From: Dehalococcoidia bacterium
GTDB lineage: Bacteria; Chloroflexota; Dehalococcoidia; Lucifugimonadales; UBA3495
DNA: 64,000 nucleotides
Direction of reading: 5' to 3'
Assembly (NCBI GenBank): GCA_963664375.1
Contig: OY761449.1
Location: forward strand, 1,547,087 to 1,611,086
The notes below the pieces were generated by a model that saw only the letters and a list, made by a program, of their open reading frames with translations, was not told where the DNA came from and did not search any database. Numbering within the stretch: the first letter of the stretch is position 1; the number at the start of each line of letters is the position of its first letter. Below, in pieces: positions 4,207 through 64,000 of this stretch. Position numbers and translations under genes: made by a program.

Positions 4207-4512
4207 ATGGAAGAAAAACAGTGGCCGCTTGGCGAATCCGAAGCCGGATTCGGGAAAATGCTAAGAAACCAATGGCAACTTGAAGAGGCCGAAACCAGGT
4301 TCCGGGAAATGCTGGCGGAAAGCGACGAGAAAGGCCCCATTATCATCGTCGAAAACGGTGTTAAGATGGGTGCGCTCTTGCCCTTTGAGCATTGGCGCCG
4401 ACTGGAGCTGAGGGCCGGGCCGGATCCGCTCCTGGCAGCGGAGCCACGCACCGAGAACTTGGCCGCGCCGCGCCGTCCGCTCCCAATGCGGCCGCCGCCT
4501 GTTTTTGATTAA
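4207..4512 (+). CDS. Phd/YefM-type antitoxin (VapB-like)
   Basis: GGAGG RBS 6 nt upstream. The W.LEEAETRFREML....GPIIIVENGVKMGALLPFEHWRRLE pattern fits this family. Its stop is 3 nt before the PIN toxin gene. Confidence 0.6.
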   Translation: MEEKQWPLGESEAGFGKMLRNQWQLEEAETRFREMLAESDEKGPIIIVENGVKMGALLPFEHWRRLELRAGPDPLLAAEPRTENLAAPRRPLPMRPPPVFD

Positions 4513-4515
4513 CAA

Positions 4516-4920
4516 ATGTTCCTCATGGACACCAACGTGATCTCCGAACTCCGTCGGCAACGCCCGCACGGAGGGGTATTGGCGTGGCTTGACAGCACAC
4601 CCCGCCATATCGTATTCCTGCCCGCGGTGGTTATCGGAGAAATACAGTCTGGAATAGAAATAACGCGCGAACAAGATACTTACCGAGCAAGGGAACTGGA
4701 GTCTTGGCTGGAGACATTGATATTGGCTTACCGGGTATTGCCGATGGACTTTCAGATTTTTCGGGCGTGGGCACGTCTCATGCACCGGAAATCAAACACC
4801 CTCAACGCCGATGCGATGATTGCCGCCACTGCCATCGTCCATGGCTTTACCGTCGTAACCCGCAACGTCAAGGACTTCGAGCAGTTCGGTGTCGCTTTGC
4901 TAAACCTTTTCGAAGGTTAG
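4516..4920 (+). CDS. vapC: PIN-domain toxin VapC (FitB-like)
   Basis: MFLMDTNVISELRR....L.....D.MIAATAIVHGFTVVTRNVKDF shows the canonical PIN acidic residues. Confidence 0.85.
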   Translation: MFLMDTNVISELRRQRPHGGVLAWLDSTPRHIVFLPAVVIGEIQSGIEITREQDTYRARELESWLETLILAYRVLPMDFQIFRAWARLMHRKSNTLNADAMIAATAIVHGFTVVTRNVKDFEQFGVALLNLFEG

Positions 4921-8711: not shown

Positions 8712-8816
8712 AAACTGGTTCCTTTTCCCATTTTTCTCGGAAGGTGGGCCTATCGCCTTATGCCGAAGACATGCCGAACATGACAGCATCCGATGTTCCT
8801 GAAAAAGCAGAGGCAC

Positions 8817-8853
8817 GCCCTCACCCTAACCCTCTCCCGGAGGGAGAGGGAAA
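8817..8853 (+). repeat. REP1 hairpin element (CCCTCACCCTAACCCTCTCCC-GGA-GGGAGAGGGAA)
   Basis: Intergenic copy. Stem CCTCTCCC/GGGAGAGG. Translates as [11 protein letters not shown] in junk ORFs. Confidence 0.8.
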
Positions 8854-8868
8854 ATGAAACATGCTCTC

Positions 8869-12000: not shown

Positions 12001-12132
12001 GATTATGCACCTCCCGGGAGGTTGCGGGCGCCGGACTGACGCGGCCATCGGCGATAAGTCCAGCGTTTTTTTCTTTATATCAACATCTACTATATCAGCA
12101 ATGAGGGGAAAAAGGCAGTGCGCAGCCAGCGG

Positions 12133-12304
12133 GGTATTCTCAGTATGTGTTGGTATTCCCATGTAGGGGCGCACAGCCGTGCGCCCTGGCCCCGGTTCCA
12201 GCACAATTCTCTCCTGCGCAGACACGGGCGCACGGCTGTGCGCCCCTACGCGGCGGGGCCAAGCAGACAAATCGCATCCAATAACAGCACATGTTGAGAA
12301 TGCC
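12133..12304 (+). mobile_element. MITE copy A (172 bp; 25-bp TIRs; 8-bp TSD GCCAGCGG)
   Basis: Left end ggtattctcagtatgtgttggtatt, right end aataacagcacatgttgagaatgcc. GCCAGCGG is present at 12125-12132 and again at 12305-12312. The interior holds two GGGGCGCAC-N4-GTGCGCCCC hairpins around a ~40-bp core. Confidence 0.85.
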
Positions 12305-12370
12305 GCCAGCGGCGAACGGCACGATTTGGGGCTGTTCCGGGGAGTCGTGCGGGACGGCGGGAAGTATACA

Positions 12371-14752: not shown

Positions 14753-14862
14753 GATAACCCCCCGACCGGCTGAGAAAATTCGCGGTGAAACCACCGCGCA
14801 GATACTACAACACGGCGGGCATGCCCACAAGCATAGCAATCAGTAAGATGGTGTGTGCAAAG

Positions 14863-14898
14863 TTCCCTCTCCCTCCGGGAGAGGGTTAGGGTGAGGGC
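14863..14898 (-). repeat. REP1 hairpin element (inverted orientation)
   Basis: ttccctctccctccgggagagggttagggtgagggc lies in the divergent intergenic region. Confidence 0.8.
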
Positions 14899-15122
14899 GT
14901 CCCCCTTACTCTCGCAGGAACGAAGGATACCGCCTTGGCGTCCACCTTGTCCGCAAAAGGCGATAGTCACACCCCCTCTGAGTCAATGTCTACAAACGTG
15001 AAAGCTTATTGCGCCTCGCGTACCGCGTGCCCGCCCTGAGCAAACCGGGTCGCGCTACAAGGATGGTAAAATTCATTTGACTACTACATCGGGATTTCAG
15101 TCCACTGACAGGACAACGGAGC

Positions 15123-15710: not shown

Positions 15711-15765
15711 TCAACTATCTCAAAACCAGCGAATTCAACTTAGGCGGCTCACTGGACTGCCTTTT

Positions 15766-15803
15766 AACCCACACCATAACCCTCCCCCTCAAGGGAGAGG
15801 GAA
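15766..15803 (+). repeat. REP1 hairpin element (degenerate)
   Basis: aacccacaccataaccctccccctcaagggagagggaa lies between convergent genes. Confidence 0.65.
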
Positions 15804-15821
15804 TTGCCGAGACTATGTAGC

Positions 15822-21009: not shown

Positions 21010-21603
21010 TCACCGGCCCGGACGGCGGGGGTGGCGAAACACGTCGGCCAGCGGGATGGCCAGGCCGGGCAGCAGCGGCGTGGTCAGAATGCCGGTGGCG
21101 TCCAGCACGGCCCGCTCCACGTACTCGCCGTCCCGCAGTTCCAGCAGGGTGGCGGTGTCCGCTCGCGCGTCGAAAATCCAGTATTCCGGCACGCCCGCCT
21201 GGGCATACACCTGCCGCTTGCGCACCAAATCCCGGCGGCGGTCGGAAGAAAGAATCTCGACCACGATGTCCGGCGCGCCCTCGACCGTCCGGTCAGTTAT
21301 GGTAGCCACGTTGCCTTGCAGGATGATGACCAGGTCCGGCGCGTAGAGTATCCGGGTCTCCAGCGACAGTGCGACGATGACGTCGTGCAGGGCTTGGGCT
21401 GGCGGGGAGTCAAAAGACCTGAGATACCCTTGAAAATACCAAATCAAATCTCCCTGCAAAGACTGGTGTCTGATTCGTGGTCGGGGCATGATGTACAGCT
21501 CCCCCTCGTCCAGTTCCATCTTCCGCCTGTCGAACGTTTCGGGCAGTTCGAGGAACTCTTCGATGGACAGCCGCGTCCCGGTGCGCGGTTTCAGCGTCGC
21601 CAT
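21010..21603 (-). CDS. Uma2-family (DUF820) endonuclease
   Basis: LSIEEFLELPE....MELDEGELYIMP......H and the PDIVVEILS....RRD...K...Y..AGVPEYWIFD pattern. Confidence 0.8.
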   Translation of the reverse strand: MATLKPRTGTRLSIEEFLELPETFDRRKMELDEGELYIMPRPRIRHQSLQGDLIWYFQGYLRSFDSPPAQALHDVIVALSLETRILYAPDLVIILQGNVATITDRTVEGAPDIVVEILSSDRRRDLVRKRQVYAQAGVPEYWIFDARADTATLLELRDGEYVERAVLDATGILTTPLLPGLAIPLADVFRHPRRPGR

Positions 21604-23542: not shown

Positions 23543-23715
23543 GGCATTCTCAACGTGTGTTGGTATTGGACGCGATTTGTCTGCTTGGCCCCGCCGCGTA
23601 GGGGCGCACAGCCGTGCGCCCGTGTCTGCGCAGGAGAGAATTGCGACGGAACCGGGGGCCAGGGCGCACGGCTGTGCGCCCCTACATGGGAATACCAACA
23701 CACGTTGAGAATACC
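23543..23715 (-). mobile_element. MITE copy B (173 bp, opposite orientation to copy A)
   Basis: TIRs ggcattctcaacgtgtgttggtatt / aataccaacacacgttgagaatacc. The flanks tgggatag / tgggaaaa form a 6-of-8 degenerate TSD. Its reverse complement has the same arm and core arrangement as copy A. Confidence 0.85.
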
Positions 23716-23738
23716 TGGGAAAAGGGCAAGGCTTTTGA

Positions 23739-23776: not shown

Positions 23777-23818
23777 AGACACCGCTGGTATCGGCAATTT
23801 TGCGGCCATATAGAGGAC

Positions 23819-23854
23819 GCCCCCACCCTAACCCTCCCCCGGAGGGAGAGGGAA
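23819..23854 (+). repeat. REP1 hairpin element
   Basis: ccccaccctaaccctcccccggagggagagggaac. Confidence 0.8.
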
Positions 23855-23863
23855 CTAAAGGCG

Positions 23864-27259: not shown

Positions 27260-28102
27260 ATGCCAACCCAGTCCACCCCAAAAGTTTCCCAGGCGCTCAG
27301 CCAATTCGAGACCGACCCGAATAGAAAAGGCAAGAAGGACGCCAGGGAAGGCAGCCAGGAATTGAGGAAGTTCCTGAGATGGAGTGGAGACCGGGAGGTG
27401 GGTAGGTTCACACCCCACGACATGGAGCAGTACGCCAAGGAGGTGGGCCAGAGTGGGGCCGATTCGGCGCAACAACGCCTCCAGCCGGTCAAGGCCTTTG
27501 TGGAATACTGGAAGACCCAGGGCTGGACCGACAAGAAACTGGCTACCCACCTGCGGCCGCCCCGCAGCAAGACCCGGGGAACCTCAAGGTCGTCGGCCCG
27601 CCCCGCCGCTCCCCGGCCCGCTGATGACGAGCCGACGTACCTTTCTCAGGAAGGCTACGACCGGATAGTGCAGCAACTGGAGGAACTCAAGGCTGACCGG
27701 GTGACTGTGACCCAGGAAATCCGGAGGGCGATGGCCGACAAGGACTTCCGGGAAAACGCGCCCCTGGATGCGGCCAAGGAAAGGCAGGGGCGGATCGAAA
27801 CGCAGATACGTCAGCTCGAATCCACCGTTGCCAACGCCCGGATCCTGTCCGGCTCGGACAACGGCGGCGTGATTGCGCGTTCCGCCGTGGGCACGCGCAT
27901 CACCGTAAGGGACAAGGATTCCGGCGAGACGCTGGACTATACCCTGGTGGACGCCCGGGAGGCGGACACCGGCCTGCGGCGAATATCGATCCAGTCTCCC
28001 GTTGGGCAGGCCCTGCTGGACTTGGGGACAGGCGACGAGGTGGCGGTTCCCACCCCCGCGGGAACGCTGACCTACGTGGTGGAGAGCATTACTTCAGTCT
28101 AG
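27260..28102 (+). CDS. greA: GreA-family transcript cleavage factor with ~120-aa N-terminal extension
   Basis: The C-terminal ~160 aa form a GreA coiled-coil (LSQEGYDRIVQQLEELKADRV....AMADKDFRENAPLDAAKERQ) plus the FKBP-like domain (ISIQSPVGQALLDLGTGDEV). GGAGG RBS lies upstream of ATG 27260. The N-terminal extension is not typical of GreA. Confidence 0.8.
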   Translation: MPTQSTPKVSQALSQFETDPNRKGKKDAREGSQELRKFLRWSGDREVGRFTPHDMEQYAKEVGQSGADSAQQRLQPVKAFVEYWKTQGWTDKKLATHLRPPRSKTRGTSRSSARPAAPRPADDEPTYLSQEGYDRIVQQLEELKADRVTVTQEIRRAMADKDFRENAPLDAAKERQGRIETQIRQLESTVANARILSGSDNGGVIARSAVGTRITVRDKDSGETLDYTLVDAREADTGLRRISIQSPVGQALLDLGTGDEVAVPTPAGTLTYVVESITSV

Positions 28103-28126
28103 CTGCGTTGCGACCCTGGAAAGTCA

Positions 28127-28160
28127 AATAGGGGCGCACTTAGCGCGCCCCTATTCTTTG
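28127..28160. terminator. bidirectional terminator hairpin between convergent greA-like and prx genes
   Basis: An 11-bp stem AATAGGGGCGC/GCGCCCCTATT is followed by cttt. Confidence 0.65.
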
Positions 28161-28191
28161 TGCCGGATCGTGTTCCGTGTTACGGAAGAGG

Positions 28192-28659
28192 TTATGAGTT
28201 CAGCTTCGCAACCTCTTCAATGATGTCGTTCGGATCAGGCAACTGGCCGGGCACGTAAGTCTCGCGGAACCTGATTACTCCGTCCTTGTCCACGATGATG
28301 ATTGCCCGGTTGCCCGCCCCACGCTCCGCGTTCCACAGGTCGTAGGCCATGGTGGTCTCGCCCTTGGGATGGAAGTCGGAGAGCTCTGGGTAGGGCAGCC
28401 CGCCCATGGCCGTGCTCCATGCCTTGTGAGAGTGTACCGTATCGCAACTGATGCCCAGAACCTGGGCATTGTTCTCCTCGAACCGGCCGTGAGCCTGCCG
28501 GAAGAGGGTGGCCTGGCTGGTTCAACCGGAGGTGAAGTCAAAGACGTGGAAGGACAGCACCACCGTCTTTTCCCCGCGGTACTGGCCCAGGGTTATTTCA
28601 CCGTGGTCGGGGGATGGCAGTTTGAAATCCGGGGCTACATCGCCAACTTCTGCAGGCAT
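28192..28659 (-). CDS. peroxiredoxin (AhpC/TSA-BCP type) with in-frame UGA at the peroxidatic position: probable selenoprotein
   Basis: ATG 28659 is preceded by aaaggag. Reading through TGA (28524-28522) gives a 155-codon frame. It reads MPAEVGDVAPDFKLPSPDHGEITLGQYRGEKTVVLSFHVFDFTSG[U]TSQATLFRQAHGRFEENNAQVLGISCDTVHSHKAW... and joins ORF 28192..28407. The TGA sits exactly where Prx proteins have Cys in the FT..C motif. Confidence 0.8.
28481..28518 (-). promoter_or_regulatory. candidate bacterial SECIS hairpin
   Basis: The mRNA from +4 to +41 after UGA (AGCCAGGCCACCCUCUUCCGGCAGGCUCACGGCCGGUU) can pair AGCC(A)GGCC with GGCCGGUU. This leaves an apical region containing CCGG about 20 nt from the UGA. 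It was folded by eye only. Confidence 0.35.
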
Positions 28660-28818
28660 ATCCACACTCCTTTGGATTAGGGCAAAAAGGGAGCTTCCCC
28701 CCTGTTCGCCGGTTGGATTATAACGCAGAATTGTCCGGCGTGTTATACAGGAACGGGACAGGCAGCGGTGCTATACTGCCGGGAGAATGCTGGACGCAGT
28801 GTCAAATAGAGGGACAGC

Positions 28819-29808
28819 GTGGAGGTAGTGTTTGACCGGGGAATATATCTCCCCGAACTTGATCTGTGGCTGGATTCCACCCGAAAGCGCGCAAGCAGCG
28901 TCATATCGCACGCTCATTCCGACCACACGGCGCGGCACAGCCGCCCGATTGTCACCCCCAACACTCTCCTGCTCCTCCGCGATTACCTGAAAAAGGCCGA
29001 TCCCATCGTGCTTCCCTACGGCGAACCGCTAGAGACCGAAACCCACACCATCACCTTGCACCCGGCAGGACACTGCCTCGGGTCGGCGCAGACGCTGGTC
29101 GTCTCCAAGACTACGGGGCACCGGCTGCTTTACACCGGCGACATCAAGACGCGCTCCAGCCCGACCAACGAACCGGCAGAGCCGGTGCAGGCCGACACGC
29201 TGGTCATCGAATGCACCTACGGCCGGCCGGAGTACGTCTTCCCCAGCCAGGAGCAGACGCTGTCCACCGCCACCCGTACACTGCAAGCCTGGCTGTCCAG
29301 AGGCGAGCGGCCCGTTGCGCTGGGCTGGCGGCTGGGCAAGGCGCAGGAGATGCTATACCACCTGCTGTCGGATGGTTTTGAGGTAGTGGCGGAGGAAGGA
29401 ATCTACCGCGCAGTCGAAGCCTACCGGGAGGCCGGTGTTGAGCTTCAGGGCAACGTAACCGCATTCGACGGTCACTGGCCCGATGGCGCCGTGGCCCTCT
29501 TTCCTCCGGGAAAGAGCGTGCAGGCACTGAGGGGATTTCGCAATCAGCGAACGATGGAGTTGACCGGCTGGGCGGTGTCGGAGACCAGGCATCACTGGCA
29601 CCGTCCCGCCGACGCAAGCCTGCCCTTCAGCGACCACGCCGACTACAACGACCTGCTGGCCTACGTGAAGGCAGTGAACCCGAGCCGGGTGTACACGGTC
29701 TACGGCTTTCCCGAGTTTGCGGCCAAGCTGCGCTCCTTGGGGTACCCTGCGGTGCATCTGGACGGCAAGGGCGGCGGAGGTGAAGGGTTTCAGATGGGGT
29801 TGTTGTAG
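28819..29808 (+). CDS. MBL-fold/beta-CASP exonuclease (ligase-associated DNA-damage-response exonuclease type)
   Basis: GTG start. IYLPELDLWLDS......VISHAHSDH resembles the N-terminus of the ligase-associated exonuclease family. HAD and H motifs occur later. Confidence 0.7.
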   Translation: MEVVFDRGIYLPELDLWLDSTRKRASSVISHAHSDHTARHSRPIVTPNTLLLLRDYLKKADPIVLPYGEPLETETHTITLHPAGHCLGSAQTLVVSKTTGHRLLYTGDIKTRSSPTNEPAEPVQADTLVIECTYGRPEYVFPSQEQTLSTATRTLQAWLSRGERPVALGWRLGKAQEMLYHLLSDGFEVVAEEGIYRAVEAYREAGVELQGNVTAFDGHWPDGAVALFPPGKSVQALRGFRNQRTMELTGWAVSETRHHWHRPADASLPFSDHADYNDLLAYVKAVNPSRVYTVYGFPEFAAKLRSLGYPAVHLDGKGGGGEGFQMGLL

Positions 29809-32367: not shown

Positions 32368-33066
32368 TCAGTGTTCGGGTTTGAGACGGCGCAGTTGCTC
32401 CCTGAGCCGTTCCGCTTCCCTCTGGGCCTCGTCGCGTTGGGCCTTCAGTTCCAACTGCGTGGGCAGGTAAATTCCCTCTACCGGGTCGTAGAAGAGCAGT
32501 TCCTGGTCCACCCAGCACAGGGCCAATTCCAAAGTCGGGCTGTAGCCCCAAATCATCCCGTCCGTTTCCAGGGTTGTCGGAAAAGGCACGTAGGAGCCGT
32601 CGACCAGCCGGTCTCCGGCCAGGGCAACGTCGTGATATTGCCCACCGGAGTAGTCGAAACGCCAGTATTCGCCGACGCCCAGACTGGCGTAACTTACCCT
32701 TTTTTGTATGTAGTCCCGCTTTCCGGTAGTCTTGGAAGCCACTTCCAGGACGAACTCCGGCGGCTTGCCTACCTCGCTGATGACGTAACCGTTGCTGTCG
32801 GTGATGCGCCTGGCGTCCACGTCGAAAGCTACGACACAGTCGGGGTGCGGCGAACGGCGGGCGTCCCGCCGCTCCCGGCAGAGGTAGCCTTGCCCGTTGA
32901 CCAAGACACGCTCGCGGCGTCCATGGAACCAGGTCTCCAGCGTCTGGTCTGTACGGGCGATATGCTTGTTCTGTTGCATATCGTAGCTTCGCGGCGGGTC
33001 AGGCAGTGGCTCAAGGTCTTCCTGCCCCCCCCTCAATATCGTTCCCAATGACCGTTCGGTAGTCAT
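32368..33066 (-). CDS. Uma2-family (DUF820) endonuclease
   Basis: PDCVVAFDV......GKPPEFVLEVASKTT..RDY..K...Y..LGVGEYWRFD. Start taken at MTTERS. It lies between ilvC and leuA on the same strand. Confidence 0.75.
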   Translation of the reverse strand: MTTERSLGTILRGGQEDLEPLPDPPRSYDMQQNKHIARTDQTLETWFHGRRERVLVNGQGYLCRERRDARRSPHPDCVVAFDVDARRITDSNGYVISEVGKPPEFVLEVASKTTGKRDYIQKRVSYASLGVGEYWRFDYSGGQYHDVALAGDRLVDGSYVPFPTTLETDGMIWGYSPTLELALCWVDQELLFYDPVEGIYLPTQLELKAQRDEAQREAERLREQLRRLKPEH

Positions 33067-33195
33067 CGTGGCCCTCCAGTCGACCGGCGGCGCCCCGTAT
33101 TGGGCATTTCTCCATGAATTGGAACGAAGGACGGGCGGCGCCACGGTCAAATTCAGAACGGCGAGCCAATGGCTTTTGCGCTTGTTGCCACCAAT

Positions 33196-34230: not shown

Positions 34231-34257
34231 CGTCATTCCCGCGGAAGCGGGAATCCT
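34231..34257. repeat. REP2 hairpin element
   Basis: cgtcattcccgcggaagcgggaatcct lies in the ilvN-ilvC spacer. Confidence 0.75.
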
Positions 34258-34276
34258 TGTTGCCTTGAAGAGGACG

Positions 34277-34311
34277 CCCTCACCCTAACCCTCTCCCGAA
34301 GGGAGAGGGAA
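34277..34311 (+). repeat. REP1 hairpin element
   Basis: gccctcaccctaaccctctcccgaagggagagggaa lies in the ilvN-ilvC spacer. Confidence 0.8.
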
Positions 34312-34321
34312 CTCTTGGGAG

Positions 34322-36730: not shown

Positions 36731-37001
36731 AAAAAAACACCCATCCCAACATGAAGGGACGGGTGTGGGCCCGCGGTACCACCCTTCTTCCCCGATGCCC
36801 GGCAGTCTTATGCCGGGTCCGGGGCTGCTTTCGGACTCTGTAACGGTGTCACCCGCCGCGCCCTGCTGTCAGGATTCGATCCGGACCATCAGGCGGGCCG
36901 CTCCCGGGCGAGTTCGCGACGCTACTGCCACCGGCTCGCACCAACCGCCGGTTCTCTGACGCAGGCTACCGCTACTACTCCCGCTCAGCGCGGAATTTCG
37001 T
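36731..37001 (-). promoter_or_regulatory. T-box riboswitch leader (putative Leu, CUC specifier) with intrinsic terminator
   Basis: The minus strand reads ...GCGCUGAGCGGGAGUAG...CAGAGAA...UGGUGCGAGCC...GCAGUAGCGUCGCGAA-CUC-G... and then GAAGAAGGGUGGUACCGCGGG, the conserved T-box sequence (36770-36790). A 10-bp terminator stem CACCCGUCCC/GGGAUGGGUG and U7 (36731-36768) follow. Confidence 0.85.
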
Positions 37002-37036: not shown

Positions 37037-37051
37037 CGAACAATTTGCCGT

Positions 37052-37224
37052 GGCATTCTCAACGCGTGCTGGTATTCCCATGTAGGGGCGCACAGCCGTG
37101 CGCCCCTGTCTGCGCAGGAGAGAATTGTGCTGGAACCGGGGGCCAGGGCGCACGGCTGTGCGCCCCTACGCGGCGGGGCCAAGCAGACAAATCGCGTCCA
37201 ATACCAACACACGTTGAGAATACC
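37052..37224 (+). mobile_element. MITE copy C (173 bp; perfect 8-bp TSD TTTGCCGT; core inverted relative to copies A and B)
   Basis: TIRs ggcattctcaacgcgtgctggtatt / aataccaacacacgttgagaatacc. TTTGCCGT is present at 37044-37051 and at 37225-37232. The core ctgtctgcgcaggagagaattgtgctggaaccgggggcca is the reverse complement of the copy A core. Confidence 0.9.
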
Positions 37225-37241
37225 TTTGCCGTTCAACGGCA

Positions 37242-41798: not shown

Positions 41799-43130
41799 AT
41801 GGAAAGCGTAACCGTCAAAAATTTCCGTTGCTTCCGTGAGGAACAGACGGCCCGGCTGGCGCCTCTGACCTTCCTCGTCGGCGAGAACAGCACGGGCAAG
41901 ACATCGTTCCTGGCCTTGCTAAGGGCGCTTTGGGATGTGGCGTTCCGGGAGGTTGCCCCTGATTTCCGTGAACCGCCCTATGACTTGGGCAGTTTCGGTG
42001 ACATTGTGCATGACCGCGGGAGGGATGAAGCCCAAGAATCGGACGGTTTCGAAGTCGGCTTTGAATGCCTGAAGTCTAAAGCCGATGCGAAGATGACCTA
42101 TCACGACAGTCTTTTTTTCCGTGCGACTTTTAGGGAGAAACAGAGTGTTCCCTTTCCAGTATCGCGGAGCTTTTCTTGTAGTGGCCATTGGGTAAAAACC
42201 TATGCAACAGAGGACGGCGGTATTGCCGTTCATTTCGGAACGCCCGAAAAGGAATGGGAGCGCAAAATCACCCCTGCCTTTCCTTTTTCGCAAGGTGACA
42301 GACTAACCGGGCTAATGCCAATCCTAGACGCCTTGACTCCCTCGAAATCTTCAGAAGGCCGGCCGGAGTCGGACGAATCTGTATCCAGGGCTGATATACA
42401 GATGATATTTGACTCTTTGCTTCCACTTGATTTCTTTGGATACCCGTATGCTGGATCGCCCGTCCGCTCCTCCCCCAAGCGAACCTACGACCCCATTCGC
42501 CCGTCGCGAGACCCGGAAGGGGAGTACATACCGACATACCTTGCGAATATGGCGCGACGAAATCCCAGAATATGGGCAACCCTCAAGTCGGATTTGGAAA
42601 AATTCGGAAAGCAGTCCGGCTTGTTTGACGAAATTGAGATCAATTCCTTTGGCAATACCGCGGGCGGGCCTTTCCAGGTACACATCGGGAAGCGTGGTAA
42701 GAAATCCGGCGGGAATGCTCGAAACCTGATCGACGTCGGCTACGGCGTCAGCCAGGCGTTGCCGCCCATCACCGAATTGTTCAATCCCGACCCGACCCCG
42801 CTGTTCCTGTTGCAGCAGCCGGAGGTTCACCTGCACCCCAGCGCGCAGGCCGCCCTCGGAACGCTGTTCTGCTCCATCGCCGGTCCAGAGCGGCAGTTGG
42901 TGGTGGAAACACACAGCGACTTCATCCTCGACCGCGTGCTTATGGACATCCGGGACAAAACGACGGACTTGAGGGCGGATGACGTTTCGATACTCTACTT
43001 CGAGCCGAACGATGACCGGGACGTTACCATCCACTCGCTGCGGTTGGACGAGCGGGCAAATATCCTGAACGCGCCCCCCGGCTATCGACAGTTTTTCGCC
43101 GATGAATTGTGGCGCTCCGTAGGGTTGTGA
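41799..43130 (+). CDS. ABC-type AAA ATPase (AAA_15/21, DUF3696-like)
   Basis: 443 aa. VKNFRCF....L.PLTFLVGENSTGKTS is Walker A, DVGYGVSQ is signature-like, LFLLQQPEVHLHP is Walker B/D-loop and VETHSD is the H-loop. The DNA is more A/T-rich than its flanks. Confidence 0.8.
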   Translation: MESVTVKNFRCFREEQTARLAPLTFLVGENSTGKTSFLALLRALWDVAFREVAPDFREPPYDLGSFGDIVHDRGRDEAQESDGFEVGFECLKSKADAKMTYHDSLFFRATFREKQSVPFPVSRSFSCSGHWVKTYATEDGGIAVHFGTPEKEWERKITPAFPFSQGDRLTGLMPILDALTPSKSSEGRPESDESVSRADIQMIFDSLLPLDFFGYPYAGSPVRSSPKRTYDPIRPSRDPEGEYIPTYLANMARRNPRIWATLKSDLEKFGKQSGLFDEIEINSFGNTAGGPFQVHIGKRGKKSGGNARNLIDVGYGVSQALPPITELFNPDPTPLFLLQQPEVHLHPSAQAALGTLFCSIAGPERQLVVETHSDFILDRVLMDIRDKTTDLRADDVSILYFEPNDDRDVTIHSLRLDERANILNAPPGYRQFFADELWRSVGL

Positions 43131-43597
43131 TGTGCGCCATTGTAGACGCCAATGTCCGGGACGAAGTATTTGGCGGCGCTTCCTCAGAGGCGGGGAAGTT
43201 TTTCCTGGACTGGTTGCGGAGGCCAAACGGCGGCCTGTTAGCATTGGGCGGCAAGCTAAGACAGGAACTAAGCGGGTTGGAGAATTTCCGGAGAATTTAT
43301 GATCTGCTGCGACTGAATGGCCGCATTGTGGATATAGACGACGATGTGGTTGACGCCGAAACCGCAGCCCTCGAAGCCCTGCGAATCTGCCGCTCCAACG
43401 ACGCCCACGTGCTCGCGCTGGCCCGGGTGAGTGGCGCCCGGTTGCTGTACACCAACGACCAGTCGCTTCAGGATGACTTCGGCGACCCTAGGATTGTCGC
43501 CAACCCAAGGGGCCGGGTCTATACCACCCGCCTGCGCAGCGATGTGAGGCCAACCCACCGCGAGTTGCTGGAGCGCGCCGACCTCTGCGCCCGCTGA
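43130..43597 (+). CDS. PIN-like nuclease domain protein
   Basis: The ATG shares its A with the ATPase TGA (TGATG). MCAIVDANV...., ...CRSNDAHVLALARVSGARLLYTNDQSL gives a PIN-like Asp pattern. Fold assignment is from motif reading only. Confidence 0.6.
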   Translation: MCAIVDANVRDEVFGGASSEAGKFFLDWLRRPNGGLLALGGKLRQELSGLENFRRIYDLLRLNGRIVDIDDDVVDAETAALEALRICRSNDAHVLALARVSGARLLYTNDQSLQDDFGDPRIVANPRGRVYTTRLRSDVRPTHRELLERADLCAR

Positions 43598-53734: not shown

Positions 53735-54990
53735 AAGAAGTGTTTCAACTGTTCCGGAAAAACCGAATGTGGCAACCCCGGCCTCTCAAGGACCGGTATC
53801 GCGTCGTCATCATCGGCGGCGGAGTGCACGGGCTGGCCACCGCCTACTACCTGACCAAGCTGGGCGTCAAGGACATCGCCGTTCTTGACAAGGGGTATCT
53901 GGGCGGCGGGGCCAGCGCCCGCACCACGGCCATCATCCGCTCCAACTACCTGACCCTCGAGGGCATCCCGTTTTTCGACGAAAGCGTCAAGCTCTACGAG
54001 GGCCTGGCGAAAGAGCTGAACTTCAACATGCTTTTCAACCAGATGGGACGCCTGGACTTGGGCCACACCGACGCCGCCCTCTATGCGCTCCGCATGCGCA
54101 CCGAATTCAACCGCATACTGGGCGTGGACAGTAGGATGGTCGGGCCGCAGGAAATCAAGCAGCTAGTCCCGTCAATGAGTCTCCGCGAAGGGCTGCCCTA
54201 CCCGATCCTCGGCGCACTGTACCACCCGCCGTGCGGCGTAATCCGGCACGACGCCGTGGTCTGGGGATTCGGGCGGGCCGCTGACCAGGGCGGCGCCGAG
54301 TTGCATCCGTTTACCGAGGTCACCGCTATCGACGCGGCCAACGGGCGGGTGACCGGCGTCGAGGTGAAAGTTCCCTCTCCCTACGGGGAAGGATCAGGGT
54401 GTGGGCGTACCATCCAGGCCGACGTGGTGCTCAGCGCCACCGCTGGCTGGAGCAGCGAAGTGGCCCGGCTAGCTGGCGTTGATCTGCCCATTACGACTCA
54501 TCCGCTACAGGCCATGGTCACGGAGCCGCTGAAACCGTTCCTGGACAAGACGATTTCGTCGGCCAACCTGCACGCCTACGTCTACCAGACCGACCGCGGC
54601 GAGGTGGTCATCGGCGGCGGGGTTGACCCCTACCCTTCATACAGCATGCGGTCGGCGTTGCTGCCCATGGAGCAACTCGCCGGCCACGCGCTGGAGATGT
54701 TCCCCTGCCTGTCCAAGGTGAAGGTGCTGCGGCAATGGGCCGGGCTTTGCGATATGACCCCCGACTATGCGCCGATAATGGGGCCGGTGGACGGGCTGGA
54801 CGGGTTCATCGTTTCCTGCGGCTGGGGAAGCTGGGGCTTCAAGGCGGCCCCGGCGGCGGGCAAGAACATCGCCCAGCTAATCGCTACGGGTGAGACTCCC
54901 GACCTGATAAAGCCCTTCCGTCTCTCGCGGTTCCACGAGGGCAAGCTGGTCAACGAGCGCGCCGCCGCCCCCGCCGCCGCCATCCACTAG
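53731..54990 (+). CDS. soxB: sarcosine oxidase beta-subunit family FAD oxidoreductase (NMG dehydrogenase beta-like by context)
   Basis: GTG overlaps the gamma-subunit stop (GTGA). YRVVIIGGGVHGLATAYYLTK is a DAO-type Rossmann motif. It contains an in-frame REP1-derived segment at 54371-54406. Confidence 0.9.
   Translation: MKEVFQLFRKNRMWQPRPLKDRYRVVIIGGGVHGLATAYYLTKLGVKDIAVLDKGYLGGGASARTTAIIRSNYLTLEGIPFFDESVKLYEGLAKELNFNMLFNQMGRLDLGHTDAALYALRMRTEFNRILGVDSRMVGPQEIKQLVPSMSLREGLPYPILGALYHPPCGVIRHDAVVWGFGRAADQGGAELHPFTEVTAIDAANGRVTGVEVKVPSPYGEGSGCGRTIQADVVLSATAGWSSEVARLAGVDLPITTHPLQAMVTEPLKPFLDKTISSANLHAYVYQTDRGEVVIGGGVDPYPSYSMRSALLPMEQLAGHALEMFPCLSKVKVLRQWAGLCDMTPDYAPIMGPVDGLDGFIVSCGWGSWGFKAAPAAGKNIAQLIATGETPDLIKPFRLSRFHEGKLVNERAAAPAAAIH
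54371..54406 (-). repeat. REP1-like element inside the soxB-like CDS (in frame)
   Basis: ttccctctccctacggggaaggatcagggtgtgggcg compares with the intergenic copy ttccctctccctccgggagagggttagggtgagggcg (14863). It is translated as VPSPYGEGSGCGR. Confidence 0.6.
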
Positions 54991-55027
54991 GCAGGCACCG
55001 GTATCGGTTTCCTTTCGTACAAGAAAA

Positions 55028-55063
55028 TCCCCTCTCCCTTGAGGGAGAGGGTTAGGGTGAGCG
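55028..55063 (-). repeat. REP1 hairpin element
   Basis: tcccctctcccttgagggagagggttagggtgagcg lies between the soxB-like and amidase genes. Confidence 0.8.
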
Positions 55064-55116
55064 GTGAAATCCCACAGTAGTAACGACGTTTCCATTCCCA
55101 CTACCGGAGGCCAACC

Positions 55117-56520: not shown

Positions 56521-56611
56521 TGCGGTCATTCCGGGAAGTATATGCCGGTAGGCTGTGGTAAACTTCGGCGCAGCAGATGACACGAATTACGAAAAATATG
56601 GAGGAAAAGGA

Positions 56612-58291
56612 ATGCCTGAATACGACCTCGTAATCCGCGGCGGCACCGTAATCGACGGCACCGGCATCCCCCGCGTTCGCGCCGACCTCGCCATCAAGGA
56701 CGGGCGGGTGGCCATGATCAGCGGGCGCATCCACGGCGGCGGAGCGAAGGAACTGGACGCCAGCGGCTGCATCGTTGCTCCGGGCGCCGTAGACCTGCAC
56801 ACCCATTACGACGCGCAACTCAACTGGGATCCCTACGCTTCTCTGTCAGGACAGTTCGGCGTAACTTCGCTCACTGTCGGACAGTGCGGCTTCGGCTTTG
56901 CCCCCACCCGTCCCGAAGACCGCGACCTGAACATGCGGATGATGAACCGCATCGAGGCCATTCCACTGGAATCCATGCGCCAGGGAATGCGCTGGGACTG
57001 GGAGACATTCCCGGAATACATGGATAGCCTTGACCGTCAGGGTTTGGGCGTCAACGTGGGCTGCCTGGTGCCTTTCTCGCCGCTGCGGGGCTATGTCCTG
57101 GGCATGATCCCGGCCCGCGAGCGCACATCGGTCACCGAGGGCGAACTGAATCAGATGAAGCAAATACTGTTCGAGGCGATGCAGGCTGGCGCCTTCGGAC
57201 TGTCTGCTGACAAAAACCTGGAGGACCGGCCCGAGGATGGCAGTTGGCTGCCCAGCCACGTTGCGTCTAAGGAGGAGTTCCTGGCGCTGTCGCAGGTGCT
57301 GTCCCAGTTCGGCGTGGGTCACCTAGGCTGGACCATCGGCATCTCCGACGACCAGGCCGGACAGCGGGACATGCTCGCCGAGATGGTGCGCATGAGCGGC
57401 CGCCCGCTGCACGTGGCCCTGGGCAGCGACCCCGACAGCTATAACTGGCTGAATGCCATGCGCAACGAGGGGCTGCCGGTAGTCTCCCAGGAGCTGGCGG
57501 TGCCGCTGATTTCCGAGTTCAAATTGTCGGAATACAACCTGTTCGACTACATGCCCACTTGGGTGCAGCCGCTGGTTGGCACCAAGGAAGAGCGGATTGC
57601 CAAGCTGTCCGAGGACGGAATCCGGGTTGGCATGAAGCGCGACGTGATTGAGCGCCCGCACCCGCGGACCGACTGGAAGCAGGTGCAGGTTGTTGAGGTG
57701 GCTCACGAGCGCAACCTGAAATACGAGGGGCTGAGCATCGCCGACATTGCCGAGGCCGAAGGCAAGGACGGCCTGGACGTGTTCCTCGATCTGGCCCTGG
57801 ACGAGGACCTGGAGACCGAATTCGCCCACCCCGCGGGCGCCACTCCCATGGACCAGATGGGGCAGGCCATCTCCAACGACTATGCCCACATTTCCGTGTC
57901 CGACGGCGGCGCTCACACCCGGTTCTTGGTCAACAGCATCTGGCCGGTTTACTTCCTGGCCCACTGGATCCGGGAGGAAAACCTGATGAGCCTGGAGCGT
58001 GCCCACCAGAAGATGAGCGCGCTGCCAGCCTGGTTCTCCGATATGAAGAACCGCGGCACCCTTCGGATTGGCGACTTCGCCGACGTCATGATCTACAACA
58101 TGGACGAGCTGGGCCTGCTCTTTGACAAGCCCCAGTTCGCCACCGACTTCCCCGGCGGCGAGAAGCGCCTGATCCAGATGCCCACCGGCATCCGCTACAT
58201 CCTGGTCAACGGCACGGTCACGTTCCAGGAAAACGAGTGCACCAACGCCCTGCCCGGCAAGCTGCTCCGCAGCTACGAACAGGTCGGATAG
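56612..58291 (+). CDS. N-acyl-D-amino-acid deacylase (D-aminoacylase) family amidohydrolase, copy 1
   Basis: YDLVIRGGTVIDGTGIPRVRADLAIKDGRVAMI......LDASGCIVAPGAVDLHTHYD. Start taken at MPEYDL. Confidence 0.85.
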   Translation: MPEYDLVIRGGTVIDGTGIPRVRADLAIKDGRVAMISGRIHGGGAKELDASGCIVAPGAVDLHTHYDAQLNWDPYASLSGQFGVTSLTVGQCGFGFAPTRPEDRDLNMRMMNRIEAIPLESMRQGMRWDWETFPEYMDSLDRQGLGVNVGCLVPFSPLRGYVLGMIPARERTSVTEGELNQMKQILFEAMQAGAFGLSADKNLEDRPEDGSWLPSHVASKEEFLALSQVLSQFGVGHLGWTIGISDDQAGQRDMLAEMVRMSGRPLHVALGSDPDSYNWLNAMRNEGLPVVSQELAVPLISEFKLSEYNLFDYMPTWVQPLVGTKEERIAKLSEDGIRVGMKRDVIERPHPRTDWKQVQVVEVAHERNLKYEGLSIADIAEAEGKDGLDVFLDLALDEDLETEFAHPAGATPMDQMGQAISNDYAHISVSDGGAHTRFLVNSIWPVYFLAHWIREENLMSLERAHQKMSALPAWFSDMKNRGTLRIGDFADVMIYNMDELGLLFDKPQFATDFPGGEKRLIQMPTGIRYILVNGTVTFQENECTNALPGKLLRSYEQVG

Positions 58292-58463: not shown

Positions 58464-60140
58464 ATGCCTGAATTCGATCTTGTGATTCGAGGCGGCACCG
58501 TAATCGACGGCACCGGAATACCCCGCGTGCGCGCCGACCTGGGCATCAAGGACGGCCGCGTGGCGATGATCAGCGGGCGCATCCACAGCGGCGGCGCCAA
58601 TGAAATTGACGCCAGCGGGTGCATTGTCGCGCCCGGCGCCATTGACCTGCACACCCATTACGACGCGCAGCTCAACTGGGACCCGTATGCCTCGCTGTCG
58701 GGCTGGTTCGGCGTGACGTCCCTGACCGTCGGCCAGTGTGGCTTCGGCTTCGCGCCCACGCGCCCGGACGACCGCGACCTGAACATGCGGATGATGAACC
58801 GCATCGAGGCCATTCCGCTGGAGTCCATGCGCCAGGGCATGCGCTGGGACTGGGAGACCTTCCCCGAATACATGGACAGCCTTGACCGACAGGGCCTCGG
58901 CGTCAACGTGGGCTGTCTCGTTCCCTTCTCCCCGCTGCGCGGCTATGTGCTGGGCATGATTCCGGCCCGTGAGCGCACCTCGGTCACCGACGCCGAGCTG
59001 AACCAGATGAAGCAGATTCTCCACGACGCGATGAAGGCCGGCGCATTCGGCATCTCCGCCGACAAGAACCTGGAAGACCGCCCCGAGGACGGCAGTTGGC
59101 TCCCCAGCCACGTCGCCTCCAAAGAGGAGTTCCTGGCGCTGTCGCAGGTGCTTTCCCAGTTCGGCGTCGGGCACCTCGGCTGGACAATCGGCATCTCCGA
59201 CGACCGCGCCGGGCAGCGCGACATGCTGGCCGAGATGGTGCGGATGAGCGGCCGCCCGCTCCATGTGGTGCTGGGCGACGACGAGGGTTACGACTGGCTG
59301 AACCAGGTGCAGGCCGAGGGCCTTCCGGTGCTGGCGCAGCTCGGTCCGGTGCCGACCATTTCCGAGTTCAAGCTGTCCGAGTACAACCTGTTCGACTACA
59401 TGCCCCACTGGGTGCAGCCGCTGGTCGGCACCAAGGAGGAGCGCATCGCCAAGCTGTCCGAGGATGGCGTGCGCGTCGGCATGAAGCAGGACGTTATTGA
59501 CCGTCCACACCCTCGCACCGACTGGACCAGGCTGCAAGTGGTCGAGGTGGCCGAAGAGCGCAACCTGAAGTACGAGGGCCTCAGCATCGCCGACATCGCC
59601 GAGGCCGAGGGCAAGCACCCGCTGGACGCCTTCCTCGACATCGCCCTGGACGAGGACCTGGAGACCGAATTCGCCCATCCCTCCAACAACCGCGGCGACG
59701 ATGTTACGGCGGAGCGGCTGAAGAACCCCTACGTGCACATCTCCGTGTCCGACGGCGGCGCGCACACCCGCTTCCTGGTCAACAGCGTATGGCCGGTCTA
59801 CTTCCTGGGTTCCTGGGTGCGGGACCGGGGGCTGATGTCCCTGGAGCAGGCGCACTACAAGATGAGCGCCCTGCCCGCCTGGTTCTCCGACATGAAGAAC
59901 CGCGGCACGCTGCGGGTTGGCGACTTCGCCGACATCATGGTCTACGACTATGACGAGCTGGGCCTGCTGTACGACAAGCCCCAGTTCGCCACCGACTTCC
60001 CCGGCGGAGAGCGGCGGCTGATCCAGAAGCCGACTGGCATGCGCTACATCCTGGTCAACGGCGCAGTGACCTTCCAGGATAACGAATGCACCGGCGCCCT
60101 GCCCGGCAAGCTCCTCCGCAGCTACGAACAGGTTGCCTAG
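58464..60140 (+). CDS. N-acyl-D-amino-acid deacylase family amidohydrolase, copy 2 (tandem paralog)
   Basis: MPEFDLVIRGGTVIDGTGIPRVRADLGIKDGRVAMI... is collinear with copy 1 over the full length. Confidence 0.85.
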   Translation: MPEFDLVIRGGTVIDGTGIPRVRADLGIKDGRVAMISGRIHSGGANEIDASGCIVAPGAIDLHTHYDAQLNWDPYASLSGWFGVTSLTVGQCGFGFAPTRPDDRDLNMRMMNRIEAIPLESMRQGMRWDWETFPEYMDSLDRQGLGVNVGCLVPFSPLRGYVLGMIPARERTSVTDAELNQMKQILHDAMKAGAFGISADKNLEDRPEDGSWLPSHVASKEEFLALSQVLSQFGVGHLGWTIGISDDRAGQRDMLAEMVRMSGRPLHVVLGDDEGYDWLNQVQAEGLPVLAQLGPVPTISEFKLSEYNLFDYMPHWVQPLVGTKEERIAKLSEDGVRVGMKQDVIDRPHPRTDWTRLQVVEVAEERNLKYEGLSIADIAEAEGKHPLDAFLDIALDEDLETEFAHPSNNRGDDVTAERLKNPYVHISVSDGGAHTRFLVNSVWPVYFLGSWVRDRGLMSLEQAHYKMSALPAWFSDMKNRGTLRVGDFADIMVYDYDELGLLYDKPQFATDFPGGERRLIQKPTGMRYILVNGAVTFQDNECTGALPGKLLRSYEQVA

Positions 60141-62761: not shown

Positions 62762-62795
62762 AGGGGCGGGTCGAAAACCCGCCCCTAACTGTTTT
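62762..62795. terminator. bidirectional terminator hairpin between convergent genes
   Basis: The AGGGGCGGGT-cgaaa-ACCCGCCCCT stem is followed by aactgtttt. It overlaps the amidohydrolase stop codon. Confidence 0.6.
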
Positions 62796-64000
62796 CCCAA
62801 ACAACCGAGCCACCGATGACGGTCAATACCGTCTTGATGCCGGGCAGGTTCTCGGCGTCCACGGTCAAGGGGTCGGAGTCCACCAGCGCCAGATCGGCTA
62901 GCTTGCCGGGAACAATGGAGCCTTTTCCCTCATCCATAACTTCCGCCCCTGCGGCTCCGAGGGTGTACATTCGGAGCGCCTGCTCCACGCTCACCGCTTG
63001 TTGGTCAGCGTCCGCCAAGGGCTTCCCGTCGGATGCGCGGCGGGTCACGGCGCTGTAAATCGCGGGCCACGGGTTCGGGTCGATTACCGGAGCATCAGAG
63101 CCGAACGCCGTCGCCACGCCCGCGCGCACGAGGCCGCCTGCCGGATACAGGTGAGGCAGCAGGCGCGGACCGACATTTTCCCGGTATGACATCCCATTGT
63201 AGTAGACGAAACCCGGCTGGGTAACGACCAATGCACCCGACTGGCGTACCGCTGCAATGAGTTCCGGCGTGCCCTCCGCGCAGTGCTCAATGCGGTCGTC
63301 GGCAATGATTCCCTCCCCCTCAGGGGGAGGGTTAGGCCGGGGGTGTGACTTTGCTAGAGAGTTCTTGTTGTCCGCTAGCATGGTTGTGGCCGCTGCGATG
63401 GCATGTTCCTCTATGCAATGAATCGCTACCGGAAAGCCCATTCGGTGCGCATCGACGATCATCTTTTCCAGTTCATCTATCGAGGGGTGGAGCCTGCCCG
63501 ACGTAAGGGTCAGCACTATCTTGGCGTGCCCCAGCCGTAGCGTATCGTCGCCTGAACCGTAACTAAGGCCAGCGTCGGTAAGCTCCTCCAGCCGCCGGAT
63601 TCCGGCGAACATGGTGATCCGGCATGGCAGCGGCCCGTCCGACTGCAATCGCCGGAAGGTATCCCAGCGTTCAATCCCGTTGTCCGCTCCGGCGTCCTGC
63701 ACCGATGTGACGCCGTAGCTTGCCAGCAACAGGCCAGCATCTCGCATTCCGTCGTCAAATTCCCCGGCCTTTCGAATCCTGCCCAGGCGATGGCGCAGGA
63801 ACGACTCGCATTCGAGCATCACCCCAGTCGGCTCGCCGGTCAATTCGTCCCGTTCGATCACACCGCCCGGAGGATCAGGCGTCTCGCGATGGATAGCAGC
63901 GGCTTCCAAGGCCAGGCTGTTCAGGACGGAGGCGTGGCCGCTGCGGTGTTGCAGCCAGACGGGATGGCGGGAGGACGCTGCGTCCAGATCGCGGCGGTCG
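62785..64000 (-). CDS. amidohydrolase-3 (YtcJ-like) metal-dependent hydrolase, 5' end outside window
   Basis: The frame stays open upstream of the listed start to the window edge (...HPVWLQHRSGHASVLNSLALEAAAI...). It carries FPVAIHCIEE, DRIEHC and FGSDAPV motifs. An in-frame REP1-derived insert lies at 63309-63346. Confidence 0.8.
   Translation of the reverse strand, partial: DRRDLDAASSRHPVWLQHRSGHASVLNSLALEAAAIHRETPDPPGGVIERDELTGEPTGVMLECESFLRHRLGRIRKAGEFDDGMRDAGLLLASYGVTSVQDAGADNGIERWDTFRRLQSDGPLPCRITMFAGIRRLEELTDAGLSYGSGDDTLRLGHAKIVLTLTSGRLHPSIDELEKMIVDAHRMGFPVAIHCIEEHAIAAATTMLADNKNSLAKSHPRPNPPPEGEGIIADDRIEHCAEGTPELIAAVRQSGALVVTQPGFVYYNGMSYRENVGPRLLPHLYPAGGLVRAGVATAFGSDAPVIDPNPWPAIYSAVTRRASDGKPLADADQQAVSVEQALRMYTLGAAGAEVMDEGKGSIVPGKLADLALVDSDPLTVDAENLPGIKTVLTVIGGSVVWENS
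63309..63346 (-). repeat. REP1-like element inside the amidohydrolase CDS (in frame)
   Basis: ttccctccccctcagggggagggttaggccgggggtg is translated on the minus strand as HPRPNPPPEGEGI. Confidence 0.65.

Follow-up and report, generated by a model that had tools for sequence, protein, structure and literature searches.

On the minus strand of the window, the 64,000-nucleotide stretch of Dehalococcoidia DNA analysed here, we identified one intact monocistronic gene that very probably encodes a 155-residue AhpE-type peroxiredoxin (Prx) with selenocysteine (Sec, U46) as its peroxidatic residue. The prx coding sequence (28192..28659) is a single frame of 155 sense codons, running from ATG at 28659-28657 to TAA at 28194-28192. 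Its sole in-frame TGA is codon 46 at 28524-28522, the proposed Sec codon of a T43-S-G-U46 motif, within ...SFHVFDFTSG-TGA-TSQATLF.... In the ORF track the gene appeared as two pieces, 28522..28665 (47 aa) and 28192..28407 (71 aa). The first-pass annotation of this DNA had proposed that a complete 155-codon Prx starts at ATG 28659 behind an aaaggag ribosome-binding site, and that its frame runs on through the TGA into the second of these pieces. Direct reading bore out both proposals: AAAGGAG is located at 28667..28673 on the minus strand with a 7-nt spacer to the ATG, and one frame continues up to the TAA.

A promoter-like site (ATAACA, 18 nt, TATAAT; 28717..28746, minus strand) was found about 58 nt upstream of the prx ATG. 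As a consensus match only, it agrees at 10 of 12 positions and is unique within 28000-28900, where shuffles gave an average of 0.3. Past the prx stop, a GC-rich perfect hairpin of 14 bp (28126..28156, minus strand) separates prx from the greA-like gene that converges on it; the 83-nt stretch containing it folds with -38.2 kcal/mol (z -6.6). This hairpin failed the T-run rule of the terminator scan, and is a probable bidirectional terminator. With the promoter-like site upstream and the 14-bp hairpin downstream, the prx unit looks monocistronic. The TGA itself was covered by contigs of four independent public runs at depths between 20 and 280 with zero alternative letters, indicating that it is not an assembly error. 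In four runs, the unitig depth increased 2-4-fold over the segment 28442-28569 that includes the TGA and the hairpins downstream, and loose ends were present at 28554 and 28569. Several co-resident relatives in the same samples appear to share this core of conserved nucleotide sequence.

The enzyme family was determined by profile and structure searches. With Cys placed at codon 46, the translation matched Pfam AhpC-TSA (PF00578) with 114.8 bits against a cut-off of 26 (E 3e-33), over residues 5-131 and profile positions 1-123 of 124. The best match among solved structures was AhpE (Rv2238c) of Mycobacterium tuberculosis (E 5.5e-27, residues 4-144 of 155), and all seven top PDB matches were AhpE entries, six of them from M. 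tuberculosis. In this alignment codon 46 falls on the peroxidatic Cys45 of M. tuberculosis AhpE (MtAhpE), while T43 and R118 fall on its catalytic Thr (FT-x-x-C45) and Arg (N-R); T43, U46, and R118 were invariant in 81 orthologues. AhpE-type (1-Cys) enzymes have a length of approximately 153 aa and carry no resolving Cys in the C-terminal arm or at CP+5. The protein shares the length and has no C-terminal resolving Cys, and it may belong to this subfamily. Some homologues carry the JGI name 'mycoredoxin-dependent peroxiredoxin'. The first-pass annotation had put the TGA exactly at the peroxidatic Cys of an AhpC/BCP-type Prx: the position was correct, as seen from MtAhpE Cys45 and from the Cys of Cys-form homologues, and the subfamily had to be changed, the closest being AhpE rather than AhpC, BCP, or PrxU. 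Assignment as a PrxU orthologue was also rejected, since the PrxU equivalog NF040737 (NCBIfam) gave 60.2 bits, below its cut-off of 270.

Two positions of the protein depart from the reference sequences. The Pro of the PxxxTxxC motif is replaced by Val39 (SFHVFDFT) in this protein and likewise in the Cys forms, a family-specific deviation that leaves the PF00578 profile match unaffected. Cys72 (GISCD; codon at 28444..28446, minus strand) is invariant in both Sec and Cys forms, being encoded by TGC in 74 and by TGT in 7 of 81 sequences, at a site where MtAhpE has Val. As judged from this sequence conservation, Cys72 is a candidate resolving cysteine, in which case the protein could be an atypical 2-Cys enzyme.

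Comparison of orthologues indicated that the TGA is translated. A scan of one genome per species yielded 305 relatives, of which the best 80 loci were analysed, all of which belong to Dehalococcoidia, Chloroflexota, or SAR202 MAGs (species-representative genomes). The start (MPAEVGD...), the length, and the TGA were common to these best 80 of 305 loci; the aligned codon was TGA in 80/80, with 72-97% amino-acid identity on either side. Neither a non-Cys sense codon nor a frameshift, both named beforehand as evidence against Sec, was detected in these close orthologues. Likewise, TGA was present in 81/81 Sec-form sequences in the per-codon analysis. Retention of TGA at this frequency is not due to chance. 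By the Nei-Gojobori method against the window sequence, dN/dS was 0.10 for codons 1-45 and 0.115 for codons 47-146, at a dS of about 1. Such a combination of a conserved TGA with purifying selection on both halves could not have arisen from an error, or from a gene that is dead or split.

Full-length relatives recovered by protein search carried either Cys or 'W' at the codon-46 site. The Trp residues (P0001 and P0003-P0010) were rejected as an artefact of short contigs translated by genetic code 4; the DNA of P0001 has TGA at the site, and its locus gives no re-translation to the query under table 11. Such spurious Trp calls in public databases would mislead Sec/Cys alignments. Genuine Cys forms, with TGC or TGT at the aligned codon, were identified in five loci (L083, L084, L086, L087, and L088), and P0011, P0012, P0013, and P0060 represent more distant Cys forms. 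The alignment to Cys-containing Prx that had been called for thus matched U46 to Cys in all five loci as well as to MtAhpE Cys45. The Cys form P0002 (L083:3001-3462, TGC) is syntenic with the window gene, lying in the same LeuA...Prx-GreA-PEPCK neighbourhood. When compared with the Sec form of a SAR202 genome (L073), the sole difference within 66 nt from the Gly45 codon onward was TGAAC to TGCTC, and both hairpins described below are still carried by this Cys form. P0002 looks like a very recent Sec-to-Cys conversion. Selenoproteins are typically recognized by this very feature, an exchange of Sec and Cys at a catalytic residue that is redox-active.

In addition to the TGA, the nucleotide sequence around it was found to be under constraint. 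Per-codon analysis of 81 distinct coding sequences revealed suppressed synonymous variation for codons 44-69 (28453..28530, minus strand). The codon for G45 was GGT in 81/81, although GGT is rare in window genes (8% of Gly codons), and N64 was AAT in 81/81, with AAT representing 19% of Asn codons. F53 (TTC) and Q66 (CAG) were also fixed in 81/81, and both R54 and R59 were nearly always CGG. Elsewhere in prx, codons for Gly, Arg, and Ala vary freely with 1.5-2.0 bits of entropy. Most of the constraint on codons 44-69 is explained by two hairpins. The 66-nt segment 28510-28445 folded better than shuffles (z -2.84), and when the first 22 nt were kept single-stranded, as under a ribosome standing on the UGA, the MFE structure was exactly hairpin 1 plus hairpin 2. 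The longest single-sequence fold including the UGA was no better than shuffles (z -0.44), and Rfam gave zero matches in the prx region at both the gathering and the E<=10 thresholds. A long MFE helix in which the UGA is paired (UUGAACC/GGUUCGA) was also considered as SECIS, and was rejected on finding covariation not beyond that of shuffles; as this helix must melt during decoding of the UGA, it was not used as SECIS.

Hairpin 1 (28476..28507, minus strand) is a SECIS candidate at the canonical distance. It begins 14 nt past the UGA, in line with the earlier claim of a hairpin at a SECIS-compatible distance after the TGA, and consists of a lower stem (CCUC/GAGG), an internal loop, an upper stem (CCGGC/GCCGG), and a 9-nt apical loop, AGGCUCACG, at +29 to +37. 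Across the sequences, this organization is kept as a 4-bp lower stem, a 5-bp upper stem, and an apical loop of 7-9 nt, with a mean pairing probability of 0.62-0.74 for the upper stem. Pairing was observed for 81-88% of cells against at most 53% for slid controls, and compensatory changes at 3-4 pairs amounted to 24 cells against 10 +/- 2.5 in shuffles. The MFE of hairpin 1 was -15.7 in comparison with -10.0 +/- 2.75 for synonymous recodings, exceeding 97% of the recodings in stability; the mean value was -15.5 kcal/mol for 73 Sec forms, in contrast to -4.6 to -10.8 for four diverged Cys forms. RNAalifold under default settings on 73 sequences did not return hairpin 1 but only a trivial 4-pair structure; the hairpins were recovered by averaging of pair probabilities, explicit pair counting, and RNAalifold with a relaxed penalty. 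In the 2005 model of Zhang & Gladyshev, a canonical SECIS reportedly has its apical loop 16-37 nt from the UGA and a G within the first two loop bases. The window's hairpin 1 has its loop at +29 to +37 beginning with AG; the loop sequence is not conserved, often being without G or GU, and the loop G is not conserved in all clades. Because of its position, hairpin 1 is the likeliest SECIS candidate.

Hairpin 2 (28451..28469, minus strand) was more strictly conserved. It is formed by AUGCCCAG-GUU-CUGGGCAU with an 8-bp stem, and all 624 cells (100%) were paired in 78 distinct sequences. Its variants were synonymous and wobble-compatible only, and the third loop base was free (GTT/GTC/GTG/GTA); once the closing G-C pair opens, the loop reads GGUNC. 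Hairpin 2 starts 53 nt past the UGA; counted from the U of this codon it spans +56 to +74, which is beyond the canonical range. Its 6-bp core forms also in three of four diverged Cys forms, and hairpin 2 is therefore not strictly Sec-specific. Taken together, the rare and invariant GGU before the UGA, the two conserved hairpins, and a GGU loop at a non-canonical distance make this extended constraint mildly unusual. A bipartite, non-canonical signal, in which hairpin 2, about 55-70 nt past the UGA, would bind SelB with hairpin 1 serving as a folded spacer that brings it to the ribosome entrance and the rare GGU codon as a further part, appears doubtful to us; if this reading were true, the distance rule for bacterial SECIS elements would be extended. 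A related possibility of the same kind is that Cys72 would make the protein the first AhpE-type enzyme working via a selenenylsulfide.

The arrangement was compared with the SECIS of E. coli fdhF, re-read from the genome. Both are stem-loops within the coding sequence downstream of the UGA, starting after 14 nt for hairpin 1 and after about 11 nt for the fdhF hairpin, and the apex of hairpin 2, CAG-GUN-CUG, resembles GCA-GGUC-UGC of fdhF. The G23/U24 loop of fdhF is located 23-24 nt from the U of UGA, whereas the sole invariant GGU loop of prx lies at +63 to +65. Unlike in fdhF, the loop of the canonically spaced hairpin is variable (7-9 nt), and the conserved hairpins are two instead of one.

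Our preferred reading is accordingly that of a Sec-Prx, for which the following mechanism is proposed. The UGA at 28524-28522 would be recoded during translation by Sec-tRNA(Sec) delivered by SelB. SelB would be recruited by a structure of the mRNA that lies inside the coding region a short way past the UGA. The likeliest such element is hairpin 1 (28507-28476), which would be positioned at the mRNA entrance of the ribosome while the UGA occupies the A site, and the invariant hairpin 2 (28469-28451) may contribute. The selenolate of U46, activated by T43 and R118, is predicted to reduce hydroperoxides. The resulting selenenic acid would then be recycled by a thiol partner, either through a selenenylsulfide with Cys72 followed by thioredoxin, or through an external thiol as in 1-Cys AhpE.

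The Sec machinery was then searched for in the DNA at hand. By tblastn with the E. coli proteins from NC_000913, none of selA, selB, and selD was detected in the 64-kb window or in the 80 loci (+/-6 kb); by Pfam, no SelA, SelB, or SelD domain was present among the 56 window genes, all of which have housekeeping or mobile functions. ARAGORN scans of the window and of 60 loci (the first of the 80) gave no tRNA(Sec), and no tRNA of any other kind. Two TGA read-through scans of the window yielded no selenoprotein gene other than prx. When the 80 loci were scanned in the same way, most hits were antisense artefacts, and one good candidate emerged, an ArsM-like SAM methyltransferase gene in a Chloroflexota MAG (L034:2574-3353, plus strand, TGA at 3180), located 3 kb from the Sec-Prx orthologue. 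Its TGA aligns with the As-binding Cys224 of C. merolae ArsM (CmArsM) within U-I-G-G, a UxxG motif, and an 8-bp hairpin with a GGA triloop follows 12 nt past the UGA. Both Prx with TxxU (PMC1794560, PMC13188914) and ArsM with UxxG (PMC13188914) are recognised selenoprotein families, and this neighbour gene, which lies outside the window, resembles the Sec-containing arsenite methyltransferase family. As far as the sequence goes, the ArsM-like gene is a candidate second selenoprotein, and would give lineage-level support for Sec decoding in a related genome. In BSepDB, Dehalococcoidia MAGs with 46-49 selenoprotein genes are included among the species possessing the Sec pathway (PMC13326102).

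These results bear on the identity of the residue inserted at the UGA. The comparative data tell that the codon is translated and leave the residue unspecified, homologues work with Cys at this position, and the Sec machinery was not seen in the window or the scanned loci. The UGA might then be read as Cys or another standard residue, either by a tRNA(Cys) with UCA anticodon together with a SelB-like factor or by near-cognate read-through stimulated by the hairpins, yielding a full-length but selenium-free protein. Recoding of UGA to Cys with SelB is known in a few bacteria. A costly recoding for Cys, a single base away from TGC, is hard to reconcile, however, with TGA in 80/80 of the best 80 of 305 loci at a dS of about 1. 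The lineage is moreover rich in selenoproteins and has the Sec pathway (PMC13326102), and a second TGA aligned with a catalytic Cys exists in the ArsM-like gene. We consider this reading to be very unlikely.

An even smaller chance is given to a split or dead gene, of which a 45-residue peptide would be made up to the TGA, the downstream part being left untranslated or expressed from an internal start. Standard ORF calling does give two pieces, and public annotations list 'redoxin domain' fragments of 87-104 aa. Our protein search recovered a small number of full-length relatives, alongside over 100 fragments (87-104 aa) starting just past the TGA position, a typical signature of gene calls truncated at a TGA; in line with the earlier remark that standard callers miss Sec-Prx, more than 100 homologues are stored either as such C-terminal fragments or with Trp. 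The internal starts chosen by the callers are inconsistent among orthologues (M52, M78, and M79), and neither piece alone has the complete T43/U46/R118 active site. Both halves stand in one frame under equal purifying selection, and no change of the TGA was seen across about 79 species, despite variation at neighbouring synonymous sites. A reassigned code with TGA as Trp or Gly, as the W given to some orthologues by metagenome pipelines might suggest, or a sequencing or assembly error, is effectively refuted, because TGA ends 11 of the 36 window genes with full-length Pfam matches and is thus an ordinary stop under a standard code with local recoding, the W calls come from short contigs with TGA in the DNA and no re-translation under table 11, homologues carry Cys rather than Trp or Gly, and four runs agree on the TGA.

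The Sec-containing reading places the protein within the known Prx (TxxU) selenoprotein family, as an AhpE-like member. The bacterial selenoprotein family 'Peroxiredoxin (Prx)' with the motif T/SxxU was described by Zhang et al. 2006 (PMC1794560) and in a 2026 review (PMC13188914); the latter cites PrxU of Eubacterium acidaminophilum (Sohling et al. 2001), the founding member of the family. In common with this family, the protein has the PF00578 fold, Sec in place of the peroxidatic Cys in T-x-x-U, Cys homologues interleaved with Sec forms, and a SECIS, here a candidate, inside the coding region right after the UGA. It differs from PrxU in length (155 aa against a PrxU profile of 233 positions), in having AhpE-type enzymes as nearest relatives, and in the replacement of the motif Pro by Val. 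Its lineage is Dehalococcoidia/SAR202, not Clostridia or Deltaproteobacteria. With MtAhpE (PDB 1XXU, 1XVW, and 5C04) it shares the length, the aligned CP, Thr, and Arg, and the absence of a C-terminal resolving Cys; it is unlike MtAhpE in carrying Sec for Cys45, the invariant Cys72 where AhpE has Val, and Val39 where AhpE has Pro. The reductant system of AhpE (mycoredoxin/mycothiol) is not expected in Chloroflexota.

As both the selenoprotein family and Dehalococcoidia rich in selenoproteins have been described before (PMC1794560, PMC13188914, PMC13326102), the main value of the present finding is the corrected annotation, and current concepts are unchanged by it. The AhpE-like Sec-Prx is widespread in Dehalococcoidia and is routinely mis-called. 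Because of such systematic mis-annotation, functional profiling misses an antioxidant enzyme that is abundant in sponge, coral, and marine Dehalococcoidia. An AhpE-like branch is added to the Sec-peroxiredoxins, and natural Sec/Cys pairs such as L073 and P0002 are suitable for tests of the catalytic advantage of Sec. The set of 81 sequences with clear constraint at the nucleotide level also provides a resource for refining bacterial SECIS models.

The gene belongs to a sponge- or marine-associated Dehalococcoidia bacterium. The window has a G+C content of 62% and shows about 90% DNA identity and synteny with a Dehalococcoidia MAG (L001). The runs holding the window sequence belong to one host-labelled study, and weaker matches were found in sponge, coral, and marine metagenomes. 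The neighbours of prx are PEPCK and the GreA-like gene (convergent), an MBL-fold hydrolase gene (divergent), and a T-box-controlled ilvB-ilvN-ilvC-leuA cluster. The T-box is the only Rfam family in the window: its leader (36752-36997, minus strand, 98.7 bits) lies upstream of the gene for the large subunit of acetolactate synthase, after which come ilvN, ilvC, a Uma2-family gene, and leuA. This cluster is a T-box-controlled operon for branched-chain amino acids with an inserted Uma2 gene.

Repeated elements and small mobile genes were observed elsewhere in the window. An intergenic palindrome of REP-like type, TTCCCTCTCCC...GGGAGAGGGTTAGGGTGAGGGCG, is present in both orientations in at least eight places (8798-8854, 14859-14903, 15762-15805, 23800-23856, 34257-34313, 54367-54411, 55025-55069, and 63305-63349). 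A MITE-like element of about 190 nt with GTAGGGGCGCACAGCCGTGCGCCC hairpins is present in three copies (12130-12321, 23543-23723, and 37044-37241) of 86-99% identity, one of which abuts the T-box leader; the GGGGCGC...GCGCCCC core of the hairpin past the prx stop is similar to this element. Small genes of mobile or defence type are scattered among the housekeeping ones (4207-4920, 21010-21603, 32368-33150, and 41799-43597), namely a Phd/PIN toxin-antitoxin pair, two putative endonucleases of the Uma2 family, and an AAA_15/AbiEii-like ATPase with a PIN-domain protein after it. Two Amidohydro_3 paralogues are arranged in tandem on the plus strand (56555-58291 and 58464-60140) with 82-87% DNA identity, and a third is located on the minus strand at 62785-63909.
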